Assembly (NCBI GenBank): GCA_035633875.1
Contig: DASQEB010000617.1
Location: forward strand, 1 to 48,675
Origin: Thermoanaerobaculia bacterium
GTDB lineage: Bacteria > Acidobacteriota > Thermoanaerobaculia > Multivoradales > UBA5704
DNA: 48,675 nucleotides
Direction: 5' to 3'
Shown one piece after another: positions 2,663 through 22,723 of this stretch. The notes beneath the pieces were generated by a model. It was not told the DNA's origin and did not search any database. It worked only from the letters and a program-made list of their open reading frames with translations. The position numbers and the translations under genes are program-made. The stretch's first letter is position 1; the number at the start of each line of letters is the position of its first letter.

Positions 2663-3886
2663 CTAGAACTGCGATGAACCGAGCATGCTGAACATCGGCA
2701 GGTAGATCGCGATCAGCAGGATCGCGATGATGATGCCCATGAACACCAGCATCATCGGCTCGACCAGGGTCAGCAGCCGCTGCATCCGCGTCTCGATCTG
2801 CTCGTCGAGGAAGTCCGAAACGTTGCTCAACATGTCGTCGAGCGAGCCCGTCGCCTCCCCGACCTTGACCATGTCGATGGCCATGTCGGTGAAGACCTCG
2901 CTCTTCTCCAGCGCCGCGTGGAAGGGCTTGCCCTCCCGCACCATCTGGATCGTCGGCTCGAGCTTGCTCCGCACCCACGCGTTGCCCACCGCCGAGACGC
3001 CGATCTCGAACGCCGGCACCAGCGGAATGCCGCCCGACAGCAACGTCGCGAGGGAGCGGCAGAATTCCGCCTGGGCGAAGCGATGGAGCACCGGCCCCAT
3101 CAGGGGGAGGCGGACCTTGAATCCGTCCAGAGCGAGCCGCCCGCTCTCCGTGCGTCCCCACGAGCGCAGCGCCAGGGCCCCGCCGACCACCGCCAGGGCC
3201 AGCACCAGCCAGTTGTTGTTGGCAAAGGAGGAGATGGCGAGCACGATCTGCGTGATCAGCGGCAGCTCCGCGTCCAACTCCGAGAAGAAGCCCATGAACT
3301 TCGGAACCACGTAGATCGCCATGATGGAGATCATGGTGACCGACAGCACCACCAGCACGGCCGGGTAGATCAGGGCCGAGACGACCCGCCGGCGCGCCTC
3401 GAGCACCAGCTTCATGTAGCGGATGAAGCGCCGGATGACCGACTCGAGCTCGCCGCTGCGCTCGCCGGCCTTGAGCGACGAGGGATAGAGCCGCGGGAAC
3501 AGGTCGCCGTGGGCGGCGAACGCCTCCGAGAGGTCCTCGCCGCTCTTGACCCGGTCGCGCACGTCGGTCAGCACCGCCTTGAAGTGCTGGTTGTGCATCC
3601 GCTCCAGCATCAGGTCCAGGGCCTGGAGCAGGGGGAGGCCCGCCCGCAGCAGGGCCGCCAGCTCCTGGTTGAAGATCATGAACTCCTGGACGGGGATCCG
3701 CCGGCGCCTCCGGCTGACCGCCGGCAGGGCGAGGCCCCGCCCTCCCCCCAGACCCCGGCGCCGCACCTCGAACAGGTGGTACCCGCGCTTGTTGAGGTCC
3801 TGGCGGAGGGACGTTTCGTCGCTGGCGGTGAAGACCTCCTCCAGCACCCTGCCGTCCGGCGTTCCGACGCGACACTGAAACTGCAT
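2663..3886 (-). CDS. GspF/PilC-family inner-membrane platform protein
   Basis: The true start is taken as MQFQCRVG (ATG at 3886), inside the longer 644-aa track ORF, giving 407 aa. It shows the duplicated GspF-type domain with hydrophobic segments and the typical C-terminal IAIYLPMF. Confidence 0.9.
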   Translation of the reverse strand: MQFQCRVGTPDGRVLEEVFTASDETSLRQDLNKRGYHLFEVRRRGLGGGRGLALPAVSRRRRRIPVQEFMIFNQELAALLRAGLPLLQALDLMLERMHNQHFKAVLTDVRDRVKSGEDLSEAFAAHGDLFPRLYPSSLKAGERSGELESVIRRFIRYMKLVLEARRRVVSALIYPAVLVVLSVTMISIMAIYVVPKFMGFFSELDAELPLITQIVLAISSFANNNWLVLALAVVGGALALRSWGRTESGRLALDGFKVRLPLMGPVLHRFAQAEFCRSLATLLSGGIPLVPAFEIGVSAVGNAWVRSKLEPTIQMVREGKPFHAALEKSEVFTDMAIDMVKVGEATGSLDDMLSNVSDFLDEQIETRMQRLLTLVEPMMLVFMGIIIAILLIAIYLPMFSMLGSSQF

Positions 3887-18342: not shown

Positions 18343-18924
18343 GTGGACCCGGGGGGCGTCCTGCAAGCCCTTGGGGAGGTCGTGAGGACGCTTGAAGATC
18401 TCCGGATTCCCTACCTCGTGGGCGGATCGCTCGCCAGCTCCGCGTACGGAATCCCCCGCACGACACAGGATGGAGACGTGGTCGCCGACTTGCGGCCCGA
18501 GCACGTTCAATCAGTTGTCGAGGCGCTCTCGAGCCGGTTCTATCTCGATGCCGAGCGGATGGCGGATGCGATCCGGCGAAAGGCTTCCTTCAACGTCATC
18601 CACCTCGGCACAGCGGCCAAGGTGGACATCTTCGTTCAGAGGGACGACCCCTGGTCCCTCGCGGAGATGAGCCGGCGGCGGCCCTACGCGATCTCGGAAG
18701 GCCTGACCTTCATTCTCGGCAGCCCTGAGGACATCGTCCTCGAAAAGCTCCGCTGGTTCCGGGTGGGGGGCGGCATGTCCGACCGGCAGTGGGACGACGT
18801 GTTGGGAGTCCTCAAGGTCCAGCGCGGAAAGCTTGATCTCGACTACCTGAAGCGCTGGGCGTCCGACCTCGGCCTCGGGGATCTCCTCGAAAAAGCCGTG
18901 GAGGATGCGGGAAGCCGCTCCTGA
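18343..18924 (+). CDS. nucleotidyltransferase-fold protein (pol-beta superfamily, AbiEii/MNT-like)
   Basis: 193 aa with a GTG start. The motif YLVGGSLASSAYGIPRTTQDGDVV matches the G-S ... D-x-D nucleotidyltransferase signature. Confidence 0.65.
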   Translation: MDPGGVLQALGEVVRTLEDLRIPYLVGGSLASSAYGIPRTTQDGDVVADLRPEHVQSVVEALSSRFYLDAERMADAIRRKASFNVIHLGTAAKVDIFVQRDDPWSLAEMSRRRPYAISEGLTFILGSPEDIVLEKLRWFRVGGGMSDRQWDDVLGVLKVQRGKLDLDYLKRWASDLGLGDLLEKAVEDAGSRS

Positions 18925-19061
18925 AGCGGCGTCAAGTCTCCTCCGGAGCGACATCTCTCGACGCAACGCCGCCGGCGCGCCACCGGAAGCCGGAATCACG
19001 CCCTTTTCCCTCCCTCGGCCCTGGCCGAAAAAGGCAAAACCAGCCATTCATGGGTGTTTGC

Positions 19062-19510
19062 GGAGCATTCCCCCTCCCGCGAGCCATCGGAAGGGGAGGG
19101 AATGCCTCATTCCCCGTTCTTCGCGTGATCCGCAGAGGAGCTGACGCCCCATTCCCCCGAGGGAACGCTCCTCGAACAGCCCTGCATACTGCGCGAAGGA
19201 CTGAAAAAATCGCATTCCCCCCTTCACGAGAGATTCGAACGACGGGGAAAGCCTCATTCCCCGCAGGGAATGCCCTGTCGATCGGTCTTCGTACGTCGCG
19301 AAGAGGAGGGAACGCTCCATTCCCCTCGGGGAACGTGTCCTGTCAGGCTCTCGCGAGCGAGAGCAAGGGGACGGAAGGTTGTACTCATTGCACTGCGCGA
19401 AGCTAGAAAAGGAGGGAATGCCCCATTCCCTGGAGGGAAAGGGGCTTTTTCCCGGTTGCGGGAGACTCGTCAAGGAAAGAAGAAGGCATGATAGGAGGGA
19501 ATGGCTCGCT
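19062..19510. repeat. array of short hairpin palindromes (GGGAATGCCYCATTCCC and half-sites) phased at multiples of 21 bp
   Basis: CATTCC starts at 19066, 19108, 19150, 19213, 19255, 19318 and 19424. The successive differences are 42, 42, 63, 42, 63 and 106. Full palindromes lie at 19098-19115, 19244-19262, 19308-19325 and 19414-19430. Extra GGAACGCTCC / GGAATGCCC half-sites lie at 19162, 19267 and 19329. The overlapping track ORFs on both strands have repeat-driven, non-protein-like translations. Confidence 0.8.
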
Positions 19511-19596
19511 TTGAGTCTCGTCCGCTTGGAAAACACCAGAAAATCCTTTCTGGAGTCCAAGAGGGCCGCAAGGCAGACCTTTCCGGATGAATAGGG

Positions 19597-20913
19597 CTAC
19601 GACTCCCTCCTGTACCACCTTCGCCGAAGGATCATCGCAAGCTCCCGGAAGGCACTTGCCTGTACACTTCTTCGCTCAACCCCCTCCTGGAGGATCCGCC
19701 ACGAGCGCAGGATGTCACCGTGGAGCTTCCAGGCTTCGAGGATCGGGTAGACGTGGGAGAGTATCTGTGCTGACTCCGCGACTCGTGCCTGAGAGGCGAG
19801 CACTTCCGCCAGATCGAGGGAAGCCAGGATCAGATCGAGCTCGAAGCTGTTCTCTACGTAGAGCTCTACAAGCTCGCGGAAGAAGCGCTCTGCCGTGCGT
19901 AGATCACCCTCGGTCCGCGCGATGTTGGCTTTCAGATGCAACAGGCGACCCGTCCAGAACACGTCCGTAAACCTGTCGTAGAGATAGCGGTAGGTTGCGA
20001 GAATCTGGGCGGCCTCTTCCGGGTTCCCCAACTCGTTGGTCCAGAATGCGAGCAGGTGTCTCCCGACGAGATCGAGGTGAGGGTCTTTGTCCGGCTCCAG
20101 GAGCAAGATTCCTTTCTCGGCCAAATCCAGTCCCAGGGCCGGATCGACAAAGCCGATGAATGAGGATTGTTTCAGGACGAGTCGACCCTCGAGCTGGCGA
20201 TCCTGGATACGGCGGGCACACCTGATTCCCCGGCTCAAAATCTTGGCCGCATCCTCCAGATAACCGAGGTCTGCCCTCAAAGAGGAGAAGATGGAGATGA
20301 GATTGGCTCTTCCATAGAGATCTCCAGTTCCCTTGTCGAGCCGCTCCTTTGCGGACTCCAGAGCCGCTTCTGCTCCCGCGAAATCGCCTGCCAGTCTCTT
20401 TGCGTTCCCGAGGACAATGTATGCGCCTGCCTTGAAATCACAGATTCTTTCCTGCCCGTATGCTTCTATGTCCAACTGCTCCGCAATCGCCAGAGCAAGA
20501 TGGGCAAGGTCGACCCCTTGGAGAGGATCATTCCGGGCGGTTGTTCTTGCCTGGTCTACTACCCGCTCGTACATGCCCCATGTGCGATAGCTGTCGACAT
20601 TCTTGATGATGAACAGACGGCTCTCTGGTGGTTCGCTCAGGAGCTTGGGCCACAACTCATCAGCAATCCGCCGCTCGGCCTGGACCTCGTTTTGAGCGAC
20701 CACATAGGCGAGCTCGAGGCGGCGGAGGAGCGCGGTATAGTCCGGCTCCTGGTTCCCTGGAGCGACTGCCGCTCGTACCAACTCAAGACACGGCTTACAC
20801 CTTGAGAGGAGATGACGCACGATCCGTTGCTTCTCCTCGGGAGGCAAGGTCTCAGCCAAGAGACGATCTACTTGCTCCCTCGATGCATGGGCATGATTCT
20901 TCGCCATTTCCAT
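19597..20913 (-). CDS. cytoplasmic zf-HC2 (anti-sigma-like zinc finger) plus TPR-like helical repeat protein
   Basis: 438 aa. N-terminal H-x3-C-x2-C (HLLSRCKPC), no transmembrane helix, and a long all-helical repeat region. It is clearly more A/T-rich than the flanking genes. Confidence 0.75.
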   Translation of the reverse strand: MEMAKNHAHASREQVDRLLAETLPPEEKQRIVRHLLSRCKPCLELVRAAVAPGNQEPDYTALLRRLELAYVVAQNEVQAERRIADELWPKLLSEPPESRLFIIKNVDSYRTWGMYERVVDQARTTARNDPLQGVDLAHLALAIAEQLDIEAYGQERICDFKAGAYIVLGNAKRLAGDFAGAEAALESAKERLDKGTGDLYGRANLISIFSSLRADLGYLEDAAKILSRGIRCARRIQDRQLEGRLVLKQSSFIGFVDPALGLDLAEKGILLLEPDKDPHLDLVGRHLLAFWTNELGNPEEAAQILATYRYLYDRFTDVFWTGRLLHLKANIARTEGDLRTAERFFRELVELYVENSFELDLILASLDLAEVLASQARVAESAQILSHVYPILEAWKLHGDILRSWRILQEGVERRSVQASAFRELAMILRRRWYRRES

Positions 20914-21101
20914 CCCGGCATCCCATGATGAAAGTCGTTCTCGCCAGAATCGCTCTCAAGAGCCCGGACCTATGGACGCGAGTGGCATCCGGCGGCCCCG
21001 CAGCCTGGAAGCCGTGTCGTGCCTGGAGGAGAATCATACACCAAAGGAAGAAACGCCGGGGAGCCCCCGGCGCAAGAGGACACGACTCCAGGATGCAGGG
21101 T

Positions 21102-21416
21102 TCAGCTACCGCAGGCGGTCGCCCCGTCAGGGTCGCAAGCCCCCCGGCCGTCACTGTCGACGGTCAGCCCATTCGGGTCTGCTGCTCCCCGTCCATCCGT
21201 GGTTTCGATTTCTCCGAGGGGGGCAAGCGTGAGTCCTCCATCCATTTCATCTGCTGCCCAGAGGGACGCGATTGGGGTGTACAGGCATTCCCAGAGGGCA
21301 GAGAAGAAGCTGGAGAGGGTGTCCACGCGCCCGTCCCCCGTCTGAGCCTGTAGAGGCAGGCACAGGACCAGGGAGAGGCAGAGGACGGCGAGGGTGCAGC
21401 GGGTACGATTGGACAT
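21102..21416 (-). CDS. small secreted protein with Asp/Gly-rich tandem motif
   Basis: 104 aa. Signal peptide MSNRTRCTLAVLCLSLVLCLPLQAQT. The C-terminus has a duplicated DGRGA(A/C)DP(N/D)G motif and ends in ATACGS. It lies 188 nt upstream of the zf-HC2/TPR gene on the same strand. Confidence 0.6.
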   Translation of the reverse strand: MSNRTRCTLAVLCLSLVLCLPLQAQTGDGRVDTLSSFFSALWECLYTPIASLWAADEMDGGLTLAPLGEIETTDGRGAADPNGLTVDSDGRGACDPDGATACGS

Positions 21417-21565
21417 GCTGATTTCCTTCCAGGAGGGATGGGCACCACGGGCGGGATTGCCGAGGGTGCGGAGCTCCTCCTAGAGAGGAAGTGAACACCA
21501 AGAGCAACCAGTTGACCGTGTGGCGGTGGCGCTCCAGGCACGGCGGTACGAAACAAAAGCTGGCC

Positions 21566-21960
21566 GGAGTGTTCCGCAAATCCCGTGGAATGCTCCACCG
21601 CCACCGCGGAATGCTCCGCAACCTCTCCGGAGCCTTTCCGGCCCCTTCGGAAGGTTCCGTTGCCCTCGCGGAACGCTCCTCGACCTCCTGGAGCATTCCC
21701 GACCTCTCCCGGAACGCTCCGCGGCCTCTCGGGAACGTTCCGCGGCGGCTCCGGACGCCCATGACCCTTCCGGAAGTCTTCCGGAGCGCTTCTCGAACGT
21801 TCCGCGGCGCCCGCGGAGCGTTCCAGAAGCCCTTCCGAACGTTCCGCAGCCCTTCCGAAGGTTCCCCGGCGACTGCAAAGCGTTCCGTGGAGAGGCCGGA
21901 GCGTTCCGCGATCCTTCTGGAATGCTCCGGGACTTGGGCGGAGTGCTCCGCGGCAGGGGC
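21566..21960 (+). repeat. about 19 head-to-tail 21-bp tandem repeats with palindromic GGAAYGYTCC core
   Basis: Core starts read at 21566, 21587, 21608, 21629, 21649, 21670, 21690, 21711, 21732, 21753 (degenerate), 21772, 21794, 21815, 21836, 21856, 21877, 21898, 21919 and 21940. Spacing is 19-22 bp, mostly 21. Approximate consensus is GGAAYGYTCCGCGRCCYCTCC. The unit at 21732 carries the perfect palindrome GGAACGTTCC. Confidence 0.9.
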
Positions 21961-22020
21961 GGATAGACAGTCGATCGCGCGCGGATATACCCCTTGGGCA
22001 GGATGCTATTCTCTTCTGCC

Positions 22021-22263
22021 ATGTCCGAACGAGTCACGATCCGTCTGCCTGCAGATCTGAGCCAAGCTCTTGAGGCCGCCTCGGCCCGCCTGCGGTGCAG
22101 GAGGTCGGATGTCGTCCGGCTGGCCCTCTATCAGTTCTTGGGCCTTGTTTCGGAGGATGACGGGATGCCTTCAGCCCGGGTCCAACACCTGATTGGTTCT
22201 CTGGAAACGGGTATCCCCGAGTTGGCTGAGAATCATCGCGCGTATATCCTGGAAGCTCTTTAA
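22021..22263 (+). CDS. ribbon-helix-helix (CopG/Arc/MetJ-type) DNA-binding protein
   Basis: Start taken at MSERVTIRLPADLSQALE.., the classic RHH beta-strand plus helix A, followed by RSDVVRLALYQFL (helix B). The track ORF begins at 21994. The start codon lies about 60 bp after the end of the 21-bp array. Confidence 0.7.
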   Translation: MSERVTIRLPADLSQALEAASARLRCRRSDVVRLALYQFLGLVSEDDGMPSARVQHLIGSLETGIPELAENHRAYILEAL

Positions 22264-22393
22264 GTTGTCCTCCTCTTCTCACGGCAGCGGCGGGACGGCT
22301 CGGAAAGGGGGAACCGGGGAGATGAGTTCCCGATCAAGGTATACTTTCCTCGGTGACGTGCTTTTCGGGAATCCGACATCAGAGGAAGGACCA

Positions 22394-22609
22394 GTGACTT
22401 TCCACGTAACGCTTGAACAGGCCGAAGACGGTTGGATCGTGGCGGAGTGCCCGGCACTGCCGGGATGTGTTTCGCAGGGCCGGGACGAGAAGGAGGCTCT
22501 CGAAAACATCCGGGAGGCGATCACCGCCTGGTTGTGGGCGGAAGACCAGAAGGCGGTCGCCGCTCTCCCGAAGCGCGAAGGGCATCTGCCCGTGGTGGTC
22601 GCCGTCTAG
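22394..22609 (+). CDS. HicB-family (UPF0150) antitoxin-like protein
   Basis: The segment FHVTLEQAEDGWIVAECPALPGCVSQGRDEKEALENIREAI is the canonical HicB N-domain pattern. GTG at 22394 is preceded by AGAGGAAGGA. An alternative ATG is at 22322. No hicA is visible on either side. Confidence 0.75.
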   Translation: MTFHVTLEQAEDGWIVAECPALPGCVSQGRDEKEALENIREAITAWLWAEDQKAVAALPKREGHLPVVVAV

Positions 22610-22723
22610 AATCCCCCGGGAACACCCCGGCCCCCGGGAACGTTTTCCTCTCGGCGCAAAACTTCCGCCCGGGGCCGACGTAGATGGCCTCGGGGAGATC
22701 CTGTCTCTGAAAGGAGCCTTTGT

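Follow-up and report, generated by a model that had tools for sequence, protein, structure and literature searches.

What keeps a long run of short palindromic repeats in place between two accessory modules on a bacterial chromosome? The question is raised by a 48,675-nucleotide stretch of Thermoanaerobaculia bacterium DNA (positions 1 to 48,675 of contig DASQEB010000617.1, assembly GCA_035633875.1; hereafter the window), in which 19 units of 19-22 bp follow one another at 21566..21960. Each unit of this noncoding main array consists of a 10-bp dyad core, GGA-RYRY-TCC (usually CGGAAYGYTCCG), and a spacer of about 11 bp. An earlier sequence-only reading, made from the letters and their open reading frames (ORFs), had described the repeats and tied them to an adjacent ribbon-helix-helix (RHH) gene. 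Comparison with related genomes leads us to a different view, namely that the array is probably a degenerate member of a dispersed family of protein-binding lattices in double-stranded DNA, offering one dyad per two helical turns to a protein encoded elsewhere. Arrays, sub-arrays and flanks are given below without a strand, and loci from other genomes are cited by L numbers.

Period and core of the main array

Cut at the 19 core positions listed in the sequence-only reading, the units of the main array have a mean spacing of 20.78 bp, and 13 of the 18 core-to-core intervals are exactly 21 bp. Tandem Repeats Finder, which that reading had proposed as a check of the period, returned 21 bp in two stretches, 21607-21755 (7.2 copies, 62% matches) and 21779-21865 (4.2 copies), together with a 62-bp superperiod over 21587-21743. 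The same two lengths stand out when the array is compared with itself, where the match is greatest at lag 21 (0.50) and next greatest at lag 62 (0.49). The core GGA[AG][CT][AG][CT]TCC is perfect in 11 of the 19 units and has at most one mismatch in 14, and the perfect 10-bp palindrome reported at 21732 is indeed there, as GGAACGTTCC. With at most one mismatch allowed, GGAAYGYTCC gives 52 strand-matches in the window, clustered in 21566-21949, against 18.7 +/- 5.2 in shuffled sequence; none of 100 shuffles reached 52. Unit cutting, Tandem Repeats Finder and shuffles thus bear out the description of about 19 head-to-tail 21-bp repeats with a palindromic core. A second TCC block per half period, also described, is present but weak, with a self-match of 0.41 at lag 11. 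The unit consensus is CGGAACGCTCCGCGGCCTCTC, and the array is degenerate, with indels at 6-8% of positions. Its G+C content is about 67% (0.64-0.67 across 21000-22000). Independent support comes from the assembly Logan SRR6517654, which matches the window at 100% identity from 18385 to 21904 and stops within the array.

A dispersed family of arrays in related genomes

When a single genome of each species was searched for runs of three cores separated by 10-12-bp gaps, 107 loci were returned, many of them in Thermoanaerobaculia/Acidobacteriota metagenome-assembled genomes (MAGs). Several MAGs contain more than one locus (seven in SMAG_U4328 and 3-6 in several others, among them six in cluster4_bin.160 and four each in SMAG_U11143 and La6_metabat2.203), and some loci lie on long-read contigs of 1-1.5 Mb. 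The sequence-only reading had counted a unit scattered across the genome as evidence against itself, and this scattering is what the relatives display, with up to seven loci per Thermoanaerobaculia MAG. Tandem Repeats Finder reports 3-22 copies at 21-bp periods for the family loci, whose spacings are nearly all 21 bp and so stricter than those of the window array. Within most arrays the units point one way. The window array has the features of the family, that is the dyad core, the 21-bp spacing and a noncoding, intergenic position. Its unit CGGAACGCTCCGCGGCCTCTC is nearly that of L031, GCGGAACACTCCGCGGCTCCT; L025 and L078 are similar, and these three, from a G+C-rich subset at unrelated loci, have the extended core CGGAAYRYTCCGC in common with the window array. 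The presence of several arrays per genome was established in the relatives; within the 48.7-kb window it amounts to the main array and a sparse lattice at 19066-19432, described below.

The specificity of the pattern was gauged on viral contigs with scrambled cores of equal degeneracy, where the family core gave 16 loci and the two control cores 2 and 0. The 21-bp period also dominates when the search core is set aside, accounting for 19 of 37 tandem-repeat regions in the fetched loci, and several array families in these genomes thus seem to have a two-turn period in common. Repeats of 21 bp that do not contain the search core were seen at L031:6069-6315 (core TGACAGCCGTCA), L029:2097-2301, L058:6865-7144 and L106:1049-1420.

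The genes beside the family arrays are unrelated and lie in all orientations. Neither all-against-all clustering of the flanking ORFs nor a Pfam search of 150 small ORFs revealed a recurrent neighbour family, no recurrent transposase was found beside the arrays, and the gene neighbourhoods yielded no candidate for the binding protein. Three leads were followed and dropped. DUF433 proteins lie beside the L004, L072/L020 and L137 arrays, too sporadically for a link. The same holds for ORFs with a DUF4351-like (Rpn-type) C-terminal region beside the L006 and L031 arrays (L006:609-1451 and L031:5813-6034), which are 41% identical to each other over 71 aa and of which only one has a Pfam match. An ORF by the L002 array (3200-3694, minus strand) resembles by eye a Y1 transposase of the kind called REP-associated tyrosine transposase (RAYT); it has no match in Pfam or PDB and does not recur. 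Some copies within one genome have 150-200 bp of noncoding flank in common. These flanks are 77-86% identical, and their variable columns are spread over the three codon phases without periodicity (9/10/10 and 26/30/28). The flanks of the window array matched none of the array loci in a sensitive blastn search. Literature searches covering the motif, tandem repeats of 21 bp and repeats in Thermoanaerobaculia brought up no published description of the family; the operators of the regulator CelR, considered below, were the only relevant item.

Conservation of the dyad between species

The positions under constraint were located in a pool of 277 units from 20 arrays, cut purely by phase. GGA is retained in 272-275 of these units (1.84-1.93 bits) and TCC in 273-275 (1.89-1.94 bits), so that their minor alleles are too few to classify. 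The four central bases carry 0.67-0.93 bits, and 83-90% of their minor alleles are transitions, which keep the RYRY alternation. Flanking positions are less conserved, with a transversion fraction of 0.2-0.9. Conservation in the family therefore follows a 3+4+3 dyad pattern and not codon positions.

Orthologous arrays allow the same comparison site by site. One set lies downstream of a XerC/D-like recombinase gene in three MAGs, with neighbouring proteins 86-87% identical; a second lies upstream of a Calx-beta protein gene in three MAGs, with neighbours 69-87% identical; in further sets the neighbours share 61-86% identity. When the recombinase-linked array is aligned across its three species, the units match one to one, and the sole indels are of 42 bp, which is two units. 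Invariant columns number 92 of 96 for GGA/TCC, 18 of 64 for the centre and 56 of 162 for the spacer. Watson-Crick covariation was found neither within units nor between adjacent units; paired combinations are, if anything, depleted (chi-square p = 0.019 and 4.5e-5, in the direction opposite to pairing). Taken together, the near-invariant GGA and TCC, the RYRY centre, the whole-unit indels, the missing covariation and the orthologous positions point to selection on a double-stranded dyad and its helical phase, and away from selection for a hairpin or for coding.

A proposed lattice of protein-binding sites and its alternatives

The family unit is a 10-bp dyad, made of two abutting 5-bp half-sites GGARY/RYTCC, that recurs every 21 bp. 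Its conservation provides good comparative evidence for a sequence-specific function at the level of double-stranded DNA, and its retention across species suggests a DNA-binding protein. The sequence-only reading had taken a dyad every two helical turns to imply protein binding to double-stranded DNA, and as an interpretation this gains support. A 21-bp dyad period would place all sites on one face of the helix, where a dimeric protein encoded elsewhere could read the dyads and fill the array cooperatively; once coated, the array might shape the chromosome, insulate or titrate. Proteins that read a single major groove, such as those with beta-ribbons of the RHH type, are suited to short abutting half-sites, which we regard as a lead only.

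Several points weigh against this account. The evidence for a binding lattice consists of sequence constraints, to whose GGA/TCC uniformity concerted evolution could have added. The window array is more degenerate than the rest of the family, with its 11 of 19 perfect cores and its indels, and may be a decaying, non-functional copy; it does not have the flanks common to some family members, and the multi-copy status was seen in the relatives. Flank identity of 77-86% within one genome also fits a mobile or duplicated element. Finally, the scan pattern fixed both core and spacing, so matches outside Acidobacteriota may be unrelated, and those in Firmicutes are three 22-bp sites inside phage terS genes.

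The foremost alternative is a neutral or selfish dispersed minisatellite, of the kind of mycobacterial interspersed repetitive units (MIRU), repetitive extragenic palindromes and bacterial interspersed mosaic elements (REP/BIME) or miniature inverted-repeat transposable elements (MITE), which would spread by duplication or mobilisation, grow by slippage and be kept uniform by concerted evolution, with neither a binder nor a host function. Such an origin accords with arrays that are multi-copy, intergenic and set beside unrelated genes in every orientation, with the noncoding flanks common to copies of one genome, and with copy numbers that change by whole units between species. It also accords with the tendency of the arrays towards accessory DNA, seen in the window as a G+C content of 57-60% in the neighbouring cassette and RHH region against about 67% around them, though the array itself is at about 67%. 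We nevertheless consider it unlikely, because arrays are kept at orthologous sites while the flanking proteins diverge to 61-69% identity, and because 96% of GGA/TCC columns in orthologous arrays are invariant against 35% of spacer columns. Homogenisation does not explain a pattern in which six positions are kept and the rest randomised. The centre, moreover, is held to RYRY while the flanks show many transversions, and no recurrent transposase accompanies the arrays. A function of the transcript, either through GGA/UCC hairpins or by sequestering an RNA-binding protein in the manner of CsrB/RsmZ, seems to us more doubtful still. GGA is invariant here as it is in CsrA-binding RNAs, most arrays have their units in one orientation, and the predicted fold of the main array is far stronger than that of shuffled sequences. 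The fold beats shuffles on both strands, however (z = -8.7 and -7.4), and the cause lies in the build of the window copy. Its left sub-array (21566..21752) has nine units, mostly of the GGAAYGCTCC type, and its right sub-array (21794..21918) six, mostly of the reverse-complementary type GGAGCGTTCC / CGAACGTTCC, followed by two GGARTGCTCC units at 21919 and 21940. The two parts thus tend towards opposite orientation and are 71-80% complementary (inverted-repeat pairs I1-I6), and these inverted sub-arrays account for a fold of similar strength on either strand. Base pairs do not covary, wobble and mismatch combinations are equally common on both strands, and the equal invariance of GGA and TCC is what a double-stranded dyad would show. 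At the gathering score, Rfam 15 has no match in the window and, in 16 array loci, gives only an unrelated match to Acido-Lenti-1; a promoter scan of 18900-22700 found no sigma-70-like promoter.

Two further explanations concern the coding capacity of the array and its nearest gene. That the array encodes a protein of 7-residue (heptad) repeats is hardly credible, even though 21 bp equal seven codons, three frames are open over its full length and gene calling on the Logan contig put an ORF there. The frame is shifted again and again by units of 19, 20 and 22 bp; the translations of ORFs across the array have no match in Pfam, and the array-spanning ORF has no homologue among 5.8 billion proteins. 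In related arrays of lower G+C content, 479 units contain stops in all six frames (39/185/62 sense, 105/59/32 antisense), and the 3+4+3 conservation described above is not that of codons. The mutually overlapping ORFs, already dismissed as noise in the sequence-only reading, arise because a repeat with 67% G+C happens to be stop-free, and ORFs called over such arrays should be treated as spurious in annotation. It is very improbable, if not to the same degree, that the array serves the adjacent RHH protein (gene at 22021..22263, plus strand) as an unusually long operator, as an orphan centromere or as a decoy. The array does end about 60 bp upstream of the RHH start, as had been reported; RHH dimers are known to read short palindromes through one major groove, and omega, ParR, ParG and CopG to bind tandem repeats. 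The 80-aa protein gives a borderline match to Pfam RHH_3 and has many homologues, 60-81% identical, of the VapB antitoxin family. We inspected four distinct loci of such homologues (L164/L165, L166/L167, L168 and L169). An overlapping PIN (VapC) gene follows in three, and in L166/L167 only short unassigned ORFs trail the homologue. The gap upstream is just 47-160 bp in all four, none has a repeat array, and none has GGARYRYTCC upstream of the gene. The homologues instead have, between the -10 region and the ATG, the sequence tgCTATTCT and then a palindrome of the GCAGTGCAATGCACTGC type (4 of 4 loci, with one or two base changes in two), which is unrelated to GGAAYGYTCC. The operator that the homologues share is therefore this palindrome and not the array, contrary to what autoregulation through the array would entail. 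A tblastn search found no relative of the window RHH protein near other arrays at the 107 loci, and the chromosomal setting of the window contains no ParA, ParM or Rep gene. We have accordingly rejected the RHH protein as the binder, and the proposed tie between array and gene does not stand.

The proposed binding of double-stranded DNA by a protein encoded elsewhere can be extended to a broader possibility, which we put forward tentatively. Thermoanaerobaculia, and possibly other phyla, might have a genome-wide system of 21-bp dyad arrays in several sequence families (GGA-RYRY-TCC, CATTCCCC, TGACAGCCGTCA, GGGAAASSTTTCCC, TCCTTTGAAAGGA and others). A different protein might coat each of them, all drawn from one unrecognised group of architectural DNA-binding proteins, and the bound arrays might serve to organise the chromosome, to insulate or to titrate; the window would then contain two arrays that bracket a peptide-TPR (tetratricopeptide repeat) signalling cassette. 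If this is true, the genome-wide arrays would be to bacteria what satellite DNA with its bound proteins is elsewhere. REP/BIME and MIRU are familiar examples of dispersed intergenic repeats; for strictly helix-phased dyad arrays with six near-invariant positions across species, we found no description in the literature searched. If a protein does coat them, they would reveal a new layer of chromosome architecture or regulation in Acidobacteriota, a soil phylum that is abundant but little studied. The 21-bp unit would be a ready bait for the putative binding protein, and the array itself would be a natural analogue of engineered lacO/tetO arrays, with its binding sites in high copy number.

The neighbouring genes and a second array

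The main array and 35-50 bp on each side form a segment of about 480 bp that is specific to the lineage. Accessory modules adjoin it, a peptide-TPR cassette on the left and a vapB remnant on the right, so that the array lies between the promoters of the cassette and of vapB, and synteny with relatives breaks at both edges of the segment. In the left flank (21516..21565) the similarity to the cassettes of the relatives L002 and L003 stops at 21515/21516; beyond the right flank (21961..22000) similarity to vapB-type promoters starts at about 22004 with tgCTATTCT. The RHH gene, a neighbour and not part of the element, retains this sequence at 22004-22012, just 8 nt before its ATG at 22021. Because only these 8 nt lie between the two, the promoter is without the GCAGTGCAATGCACTGC palindrome, which has been deleted in the window, and no remnant of a PIN gene was seen there. 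The RHH gene is a decayed vapB whose closeness to the array looks incidental; it could be expressed from a leaderless mRNA or be a dead remnant. A HicB-like antitoxin gene follows it at 22394-22609, with no HicA gene seen.

The peptide-TPR cassette (19597..21416, minus strand) is conserved, lies between the two arrays of the window and consists of two genes. The first (21102-21416) encodes a secreted protein of 104 aa with a signal peptide and DGRGACDPNG-type repeats. The second (19597-20913) encodes a TPR_MalT-like protein of 438 aa with an N-terminal H..H-x4-C-x2-C motif, in which H9, H34, C39 and C42 are invariant; the motif resembles the zinc motif of anti-sigma factors but has H-x4-C spacing. 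The two may form a peptide-sensing regulatory pair. An HTH_31 gene precedes the cassette in the relatives L002, L003, L113, L170 and L171. On a metagenome contig, L141:4049-5420 is an array of clustered regularly interspaced short palindromic repeats (CRISPR) with a 61-bp period, downstream of a distant TPR paralogue.

Directly downstream (3') of the TPR gene lies a second, sparse array (19066..19432) that the sequence-only reading did not mention. It comprises seven CATTCC(C) sites (19066-19424), all in phase with a single 21-bp lattice at spacings of 42, 42, 63, 42, 63 and 106, and four of the seven are GGGAATG-CCY-CATTCCC palindromes. The half-site GGAAYG/CRTTCC is common to both arrays. 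One palindrome of the second array (19413-19431, minus strand) receives a terminator-like score. Comparable 21-bp arrays of CATTCCCCCC occur in L016 and L107. All cassette loci of at least 60% identity with enough flank have a palindrome array of 20-, 21- or 42-bp period within about 3 kb (L002:2700-3200, L170:1596-1991, L113:242-426, L003:3689-3838 / L171:6679-6770 and L004:7850-8350). These arrays differ in core (GGAGCGGCTCC, GGGAAASSTTTCCC, TCCTTTGAAAGGA, GTCGGGTTGAACCCGAC, GAACAATGTTC), and outside the cassette the DNA of the loci is non-homologous.

The wider setting is chromosomal, with genes for a radical S-adenosylmethionine (SAM) protein, glutamate dehydrogenase (GdhA), an MscS channel and a tricorn protease. 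The G+C content falls to 57-60% in the cassette (19000-21000) and in the RHH region (22000-22500), whereas the genes around them are at about 67%. No partition or replication gene turned up when the neighbours in the window were annotated with Pfam and NCBIfam; with the TPR, VapB-type RHH, HicB-like, tricorn protease, MscS and GdhA proteins as neighbours, the earlier statement that ParA, Rep and other partner genes are missing nearby was correct.

Comparison with known repeat systems

By analogy, the array would most resemble tandem-repeat centromeres (sopC, parC) and iteron arrays in mechanism, and minisatellites and REP/BIME in distribution. Each of the known families compared departs from it in at least one of the defining features tested. 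Plasmid centromeres, such as the 12 x 43-bp sopC of F, the parC of pSK41 with 20-bp repeats bound by the RHH protein ParR, and the parC of R1, are the closest mechanistic analogue, being head-to-tail, helix-phased dyad repeats that allow cooperative coating by a dimeric protein. The phased dyad repeats are present here as well. Centromeres, however, occur once per replicon beside parA/parM and the gene of the binder, whereas the relatives have several array loci per chromosome; neither a partition NTPase (ParA, ParM or TubZ) nor a cognate binder was found among the neighbours, and the adjacent RHH gene is a vapB remnant. Iterons (e.g. R6K, 7 x 22 bp) are likewise direct repeats, of 17-22 bp at about two-turn spacing, and titration of a binder is possible for both. 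The combination of rep gene, A+T-rich unwinding element and DnaA boxes that marks an iteron origin is missing here: no Rep family occurs among the neighbours, the G+C content is 67%, the copies number 19, and relatives have multiple chromosomal loci. The centromere and iteron readings offered earlier thus find no partner genes, in a context of chromosomal housekeeping genes.

Among dispersed repeats, MIRU are likewise tandem arrays of short units at many intergenic loci per chromosome that vary by whole units. MIRU units, at 46-101 bp, are longer, lack a dyad core and belong to operon junctions; the present unit is 21 bp, with a near-invariant GGA-N4-TCC dyad, and the arrays are retained beside proteins that are 61-87% identical between species. 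REP/BIME elements of enterobacteria and pseudomonads are also multi-copy, intergenic, palindromic and sometimes tandem, and are bound by the host proteins gyrase and integration host factor (IHF). They differ in being hairpin units of 35-40 bp in alternating orientation and linked to RAYT, whereas the array has a 10-bp palindrome without pairing covariation at a strict 21-bp period, and no RAYT with a Pfam or PDB match was found beside the arrays.

Two cases resemble the core more than the array. The operator of the LacI-family regulators CelR/CebR is TGGGAGCGCTCCCA, with a variant TGGGA(A/T)CG(A/T)TCCCA (PMC3377646), and at its centre are the same 10 bp (GGAGCGCTCC / GGAACGTTCC) as in the core of the array. 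CelR thus shows that a bacterial dimeric regulator is able to read such a dyad. CelR sites, in contrast, occur singly, as 14-bp operators ahead of genes for cellulases and transporters, and require a G and a C beyond the core, while the arrays have C...G flanks (window) or unequal sides, and central CG in only about 11-12% of units; we regard CelR/CebR as a lead and not as evidence of membership. Phage pac-like sites present the same dyad core at two-turn spacing in 3 x 22-bp repeats of GGAGTACTCC / GGAGCGCTCC, which a ring-shaped small terminase may reasonably be inferred to wrap. They comprise three or four copies with A+T-rich spacers inside terS, next to terL, whereas the 19 copies of the window array lie between genes and away from any phage gene.

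Similar repeats in other lineages

The scan also returned matches far from Acidobacteriota. Firmicutes prophages (L009, L043, L079, L084) and viral loci L147-L161 contain three or four 22-bp repeats with a GGAGTACTCC, GGAGCGCTCC or GGAACGTTCC core. In L009, L043 and L084, where the context was checked, the repeats lie inside the small-terminase gene (PF10668), which in L009 is followed by terL (Terminase_6N). They look like a pac-type packaging site, and the viral and Firmicutes matches are a phenomenon separate from the Thermoanaerobaculia arrays.

Cellulomonadaceae have 3-7 loci per genome of 20-21-bp GTGGAGCGYTCC arrays, whose core is the centre of the CelR/CebR operator. They are L012, L063, L067 and L070 in Cellulomonas sp. 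APG4, and L019, L039, L112, L034, L042, L049, L059, L087, L101 and L061 in Actinotalea. Termite-gut MAGs assigned to different phyla (Bacteroidales, Treponema, Spirochaetaceae, Planctomycetaceae) have 21-bp GGAACGTTCC arrays in common, and some flanks as well (L013/L056); the loci are L008, L013, L017, L023, L026, L040, L051, L053, L056, L082, L090 and L111. This sharing may reflect mobile DNA, mis-binning or host DNA. A search with a control pattern turned up a viral contig, L162, with 40 copies of a 21-bp unit at 570-1416, built on a GGGAGACGTCTC dyad.

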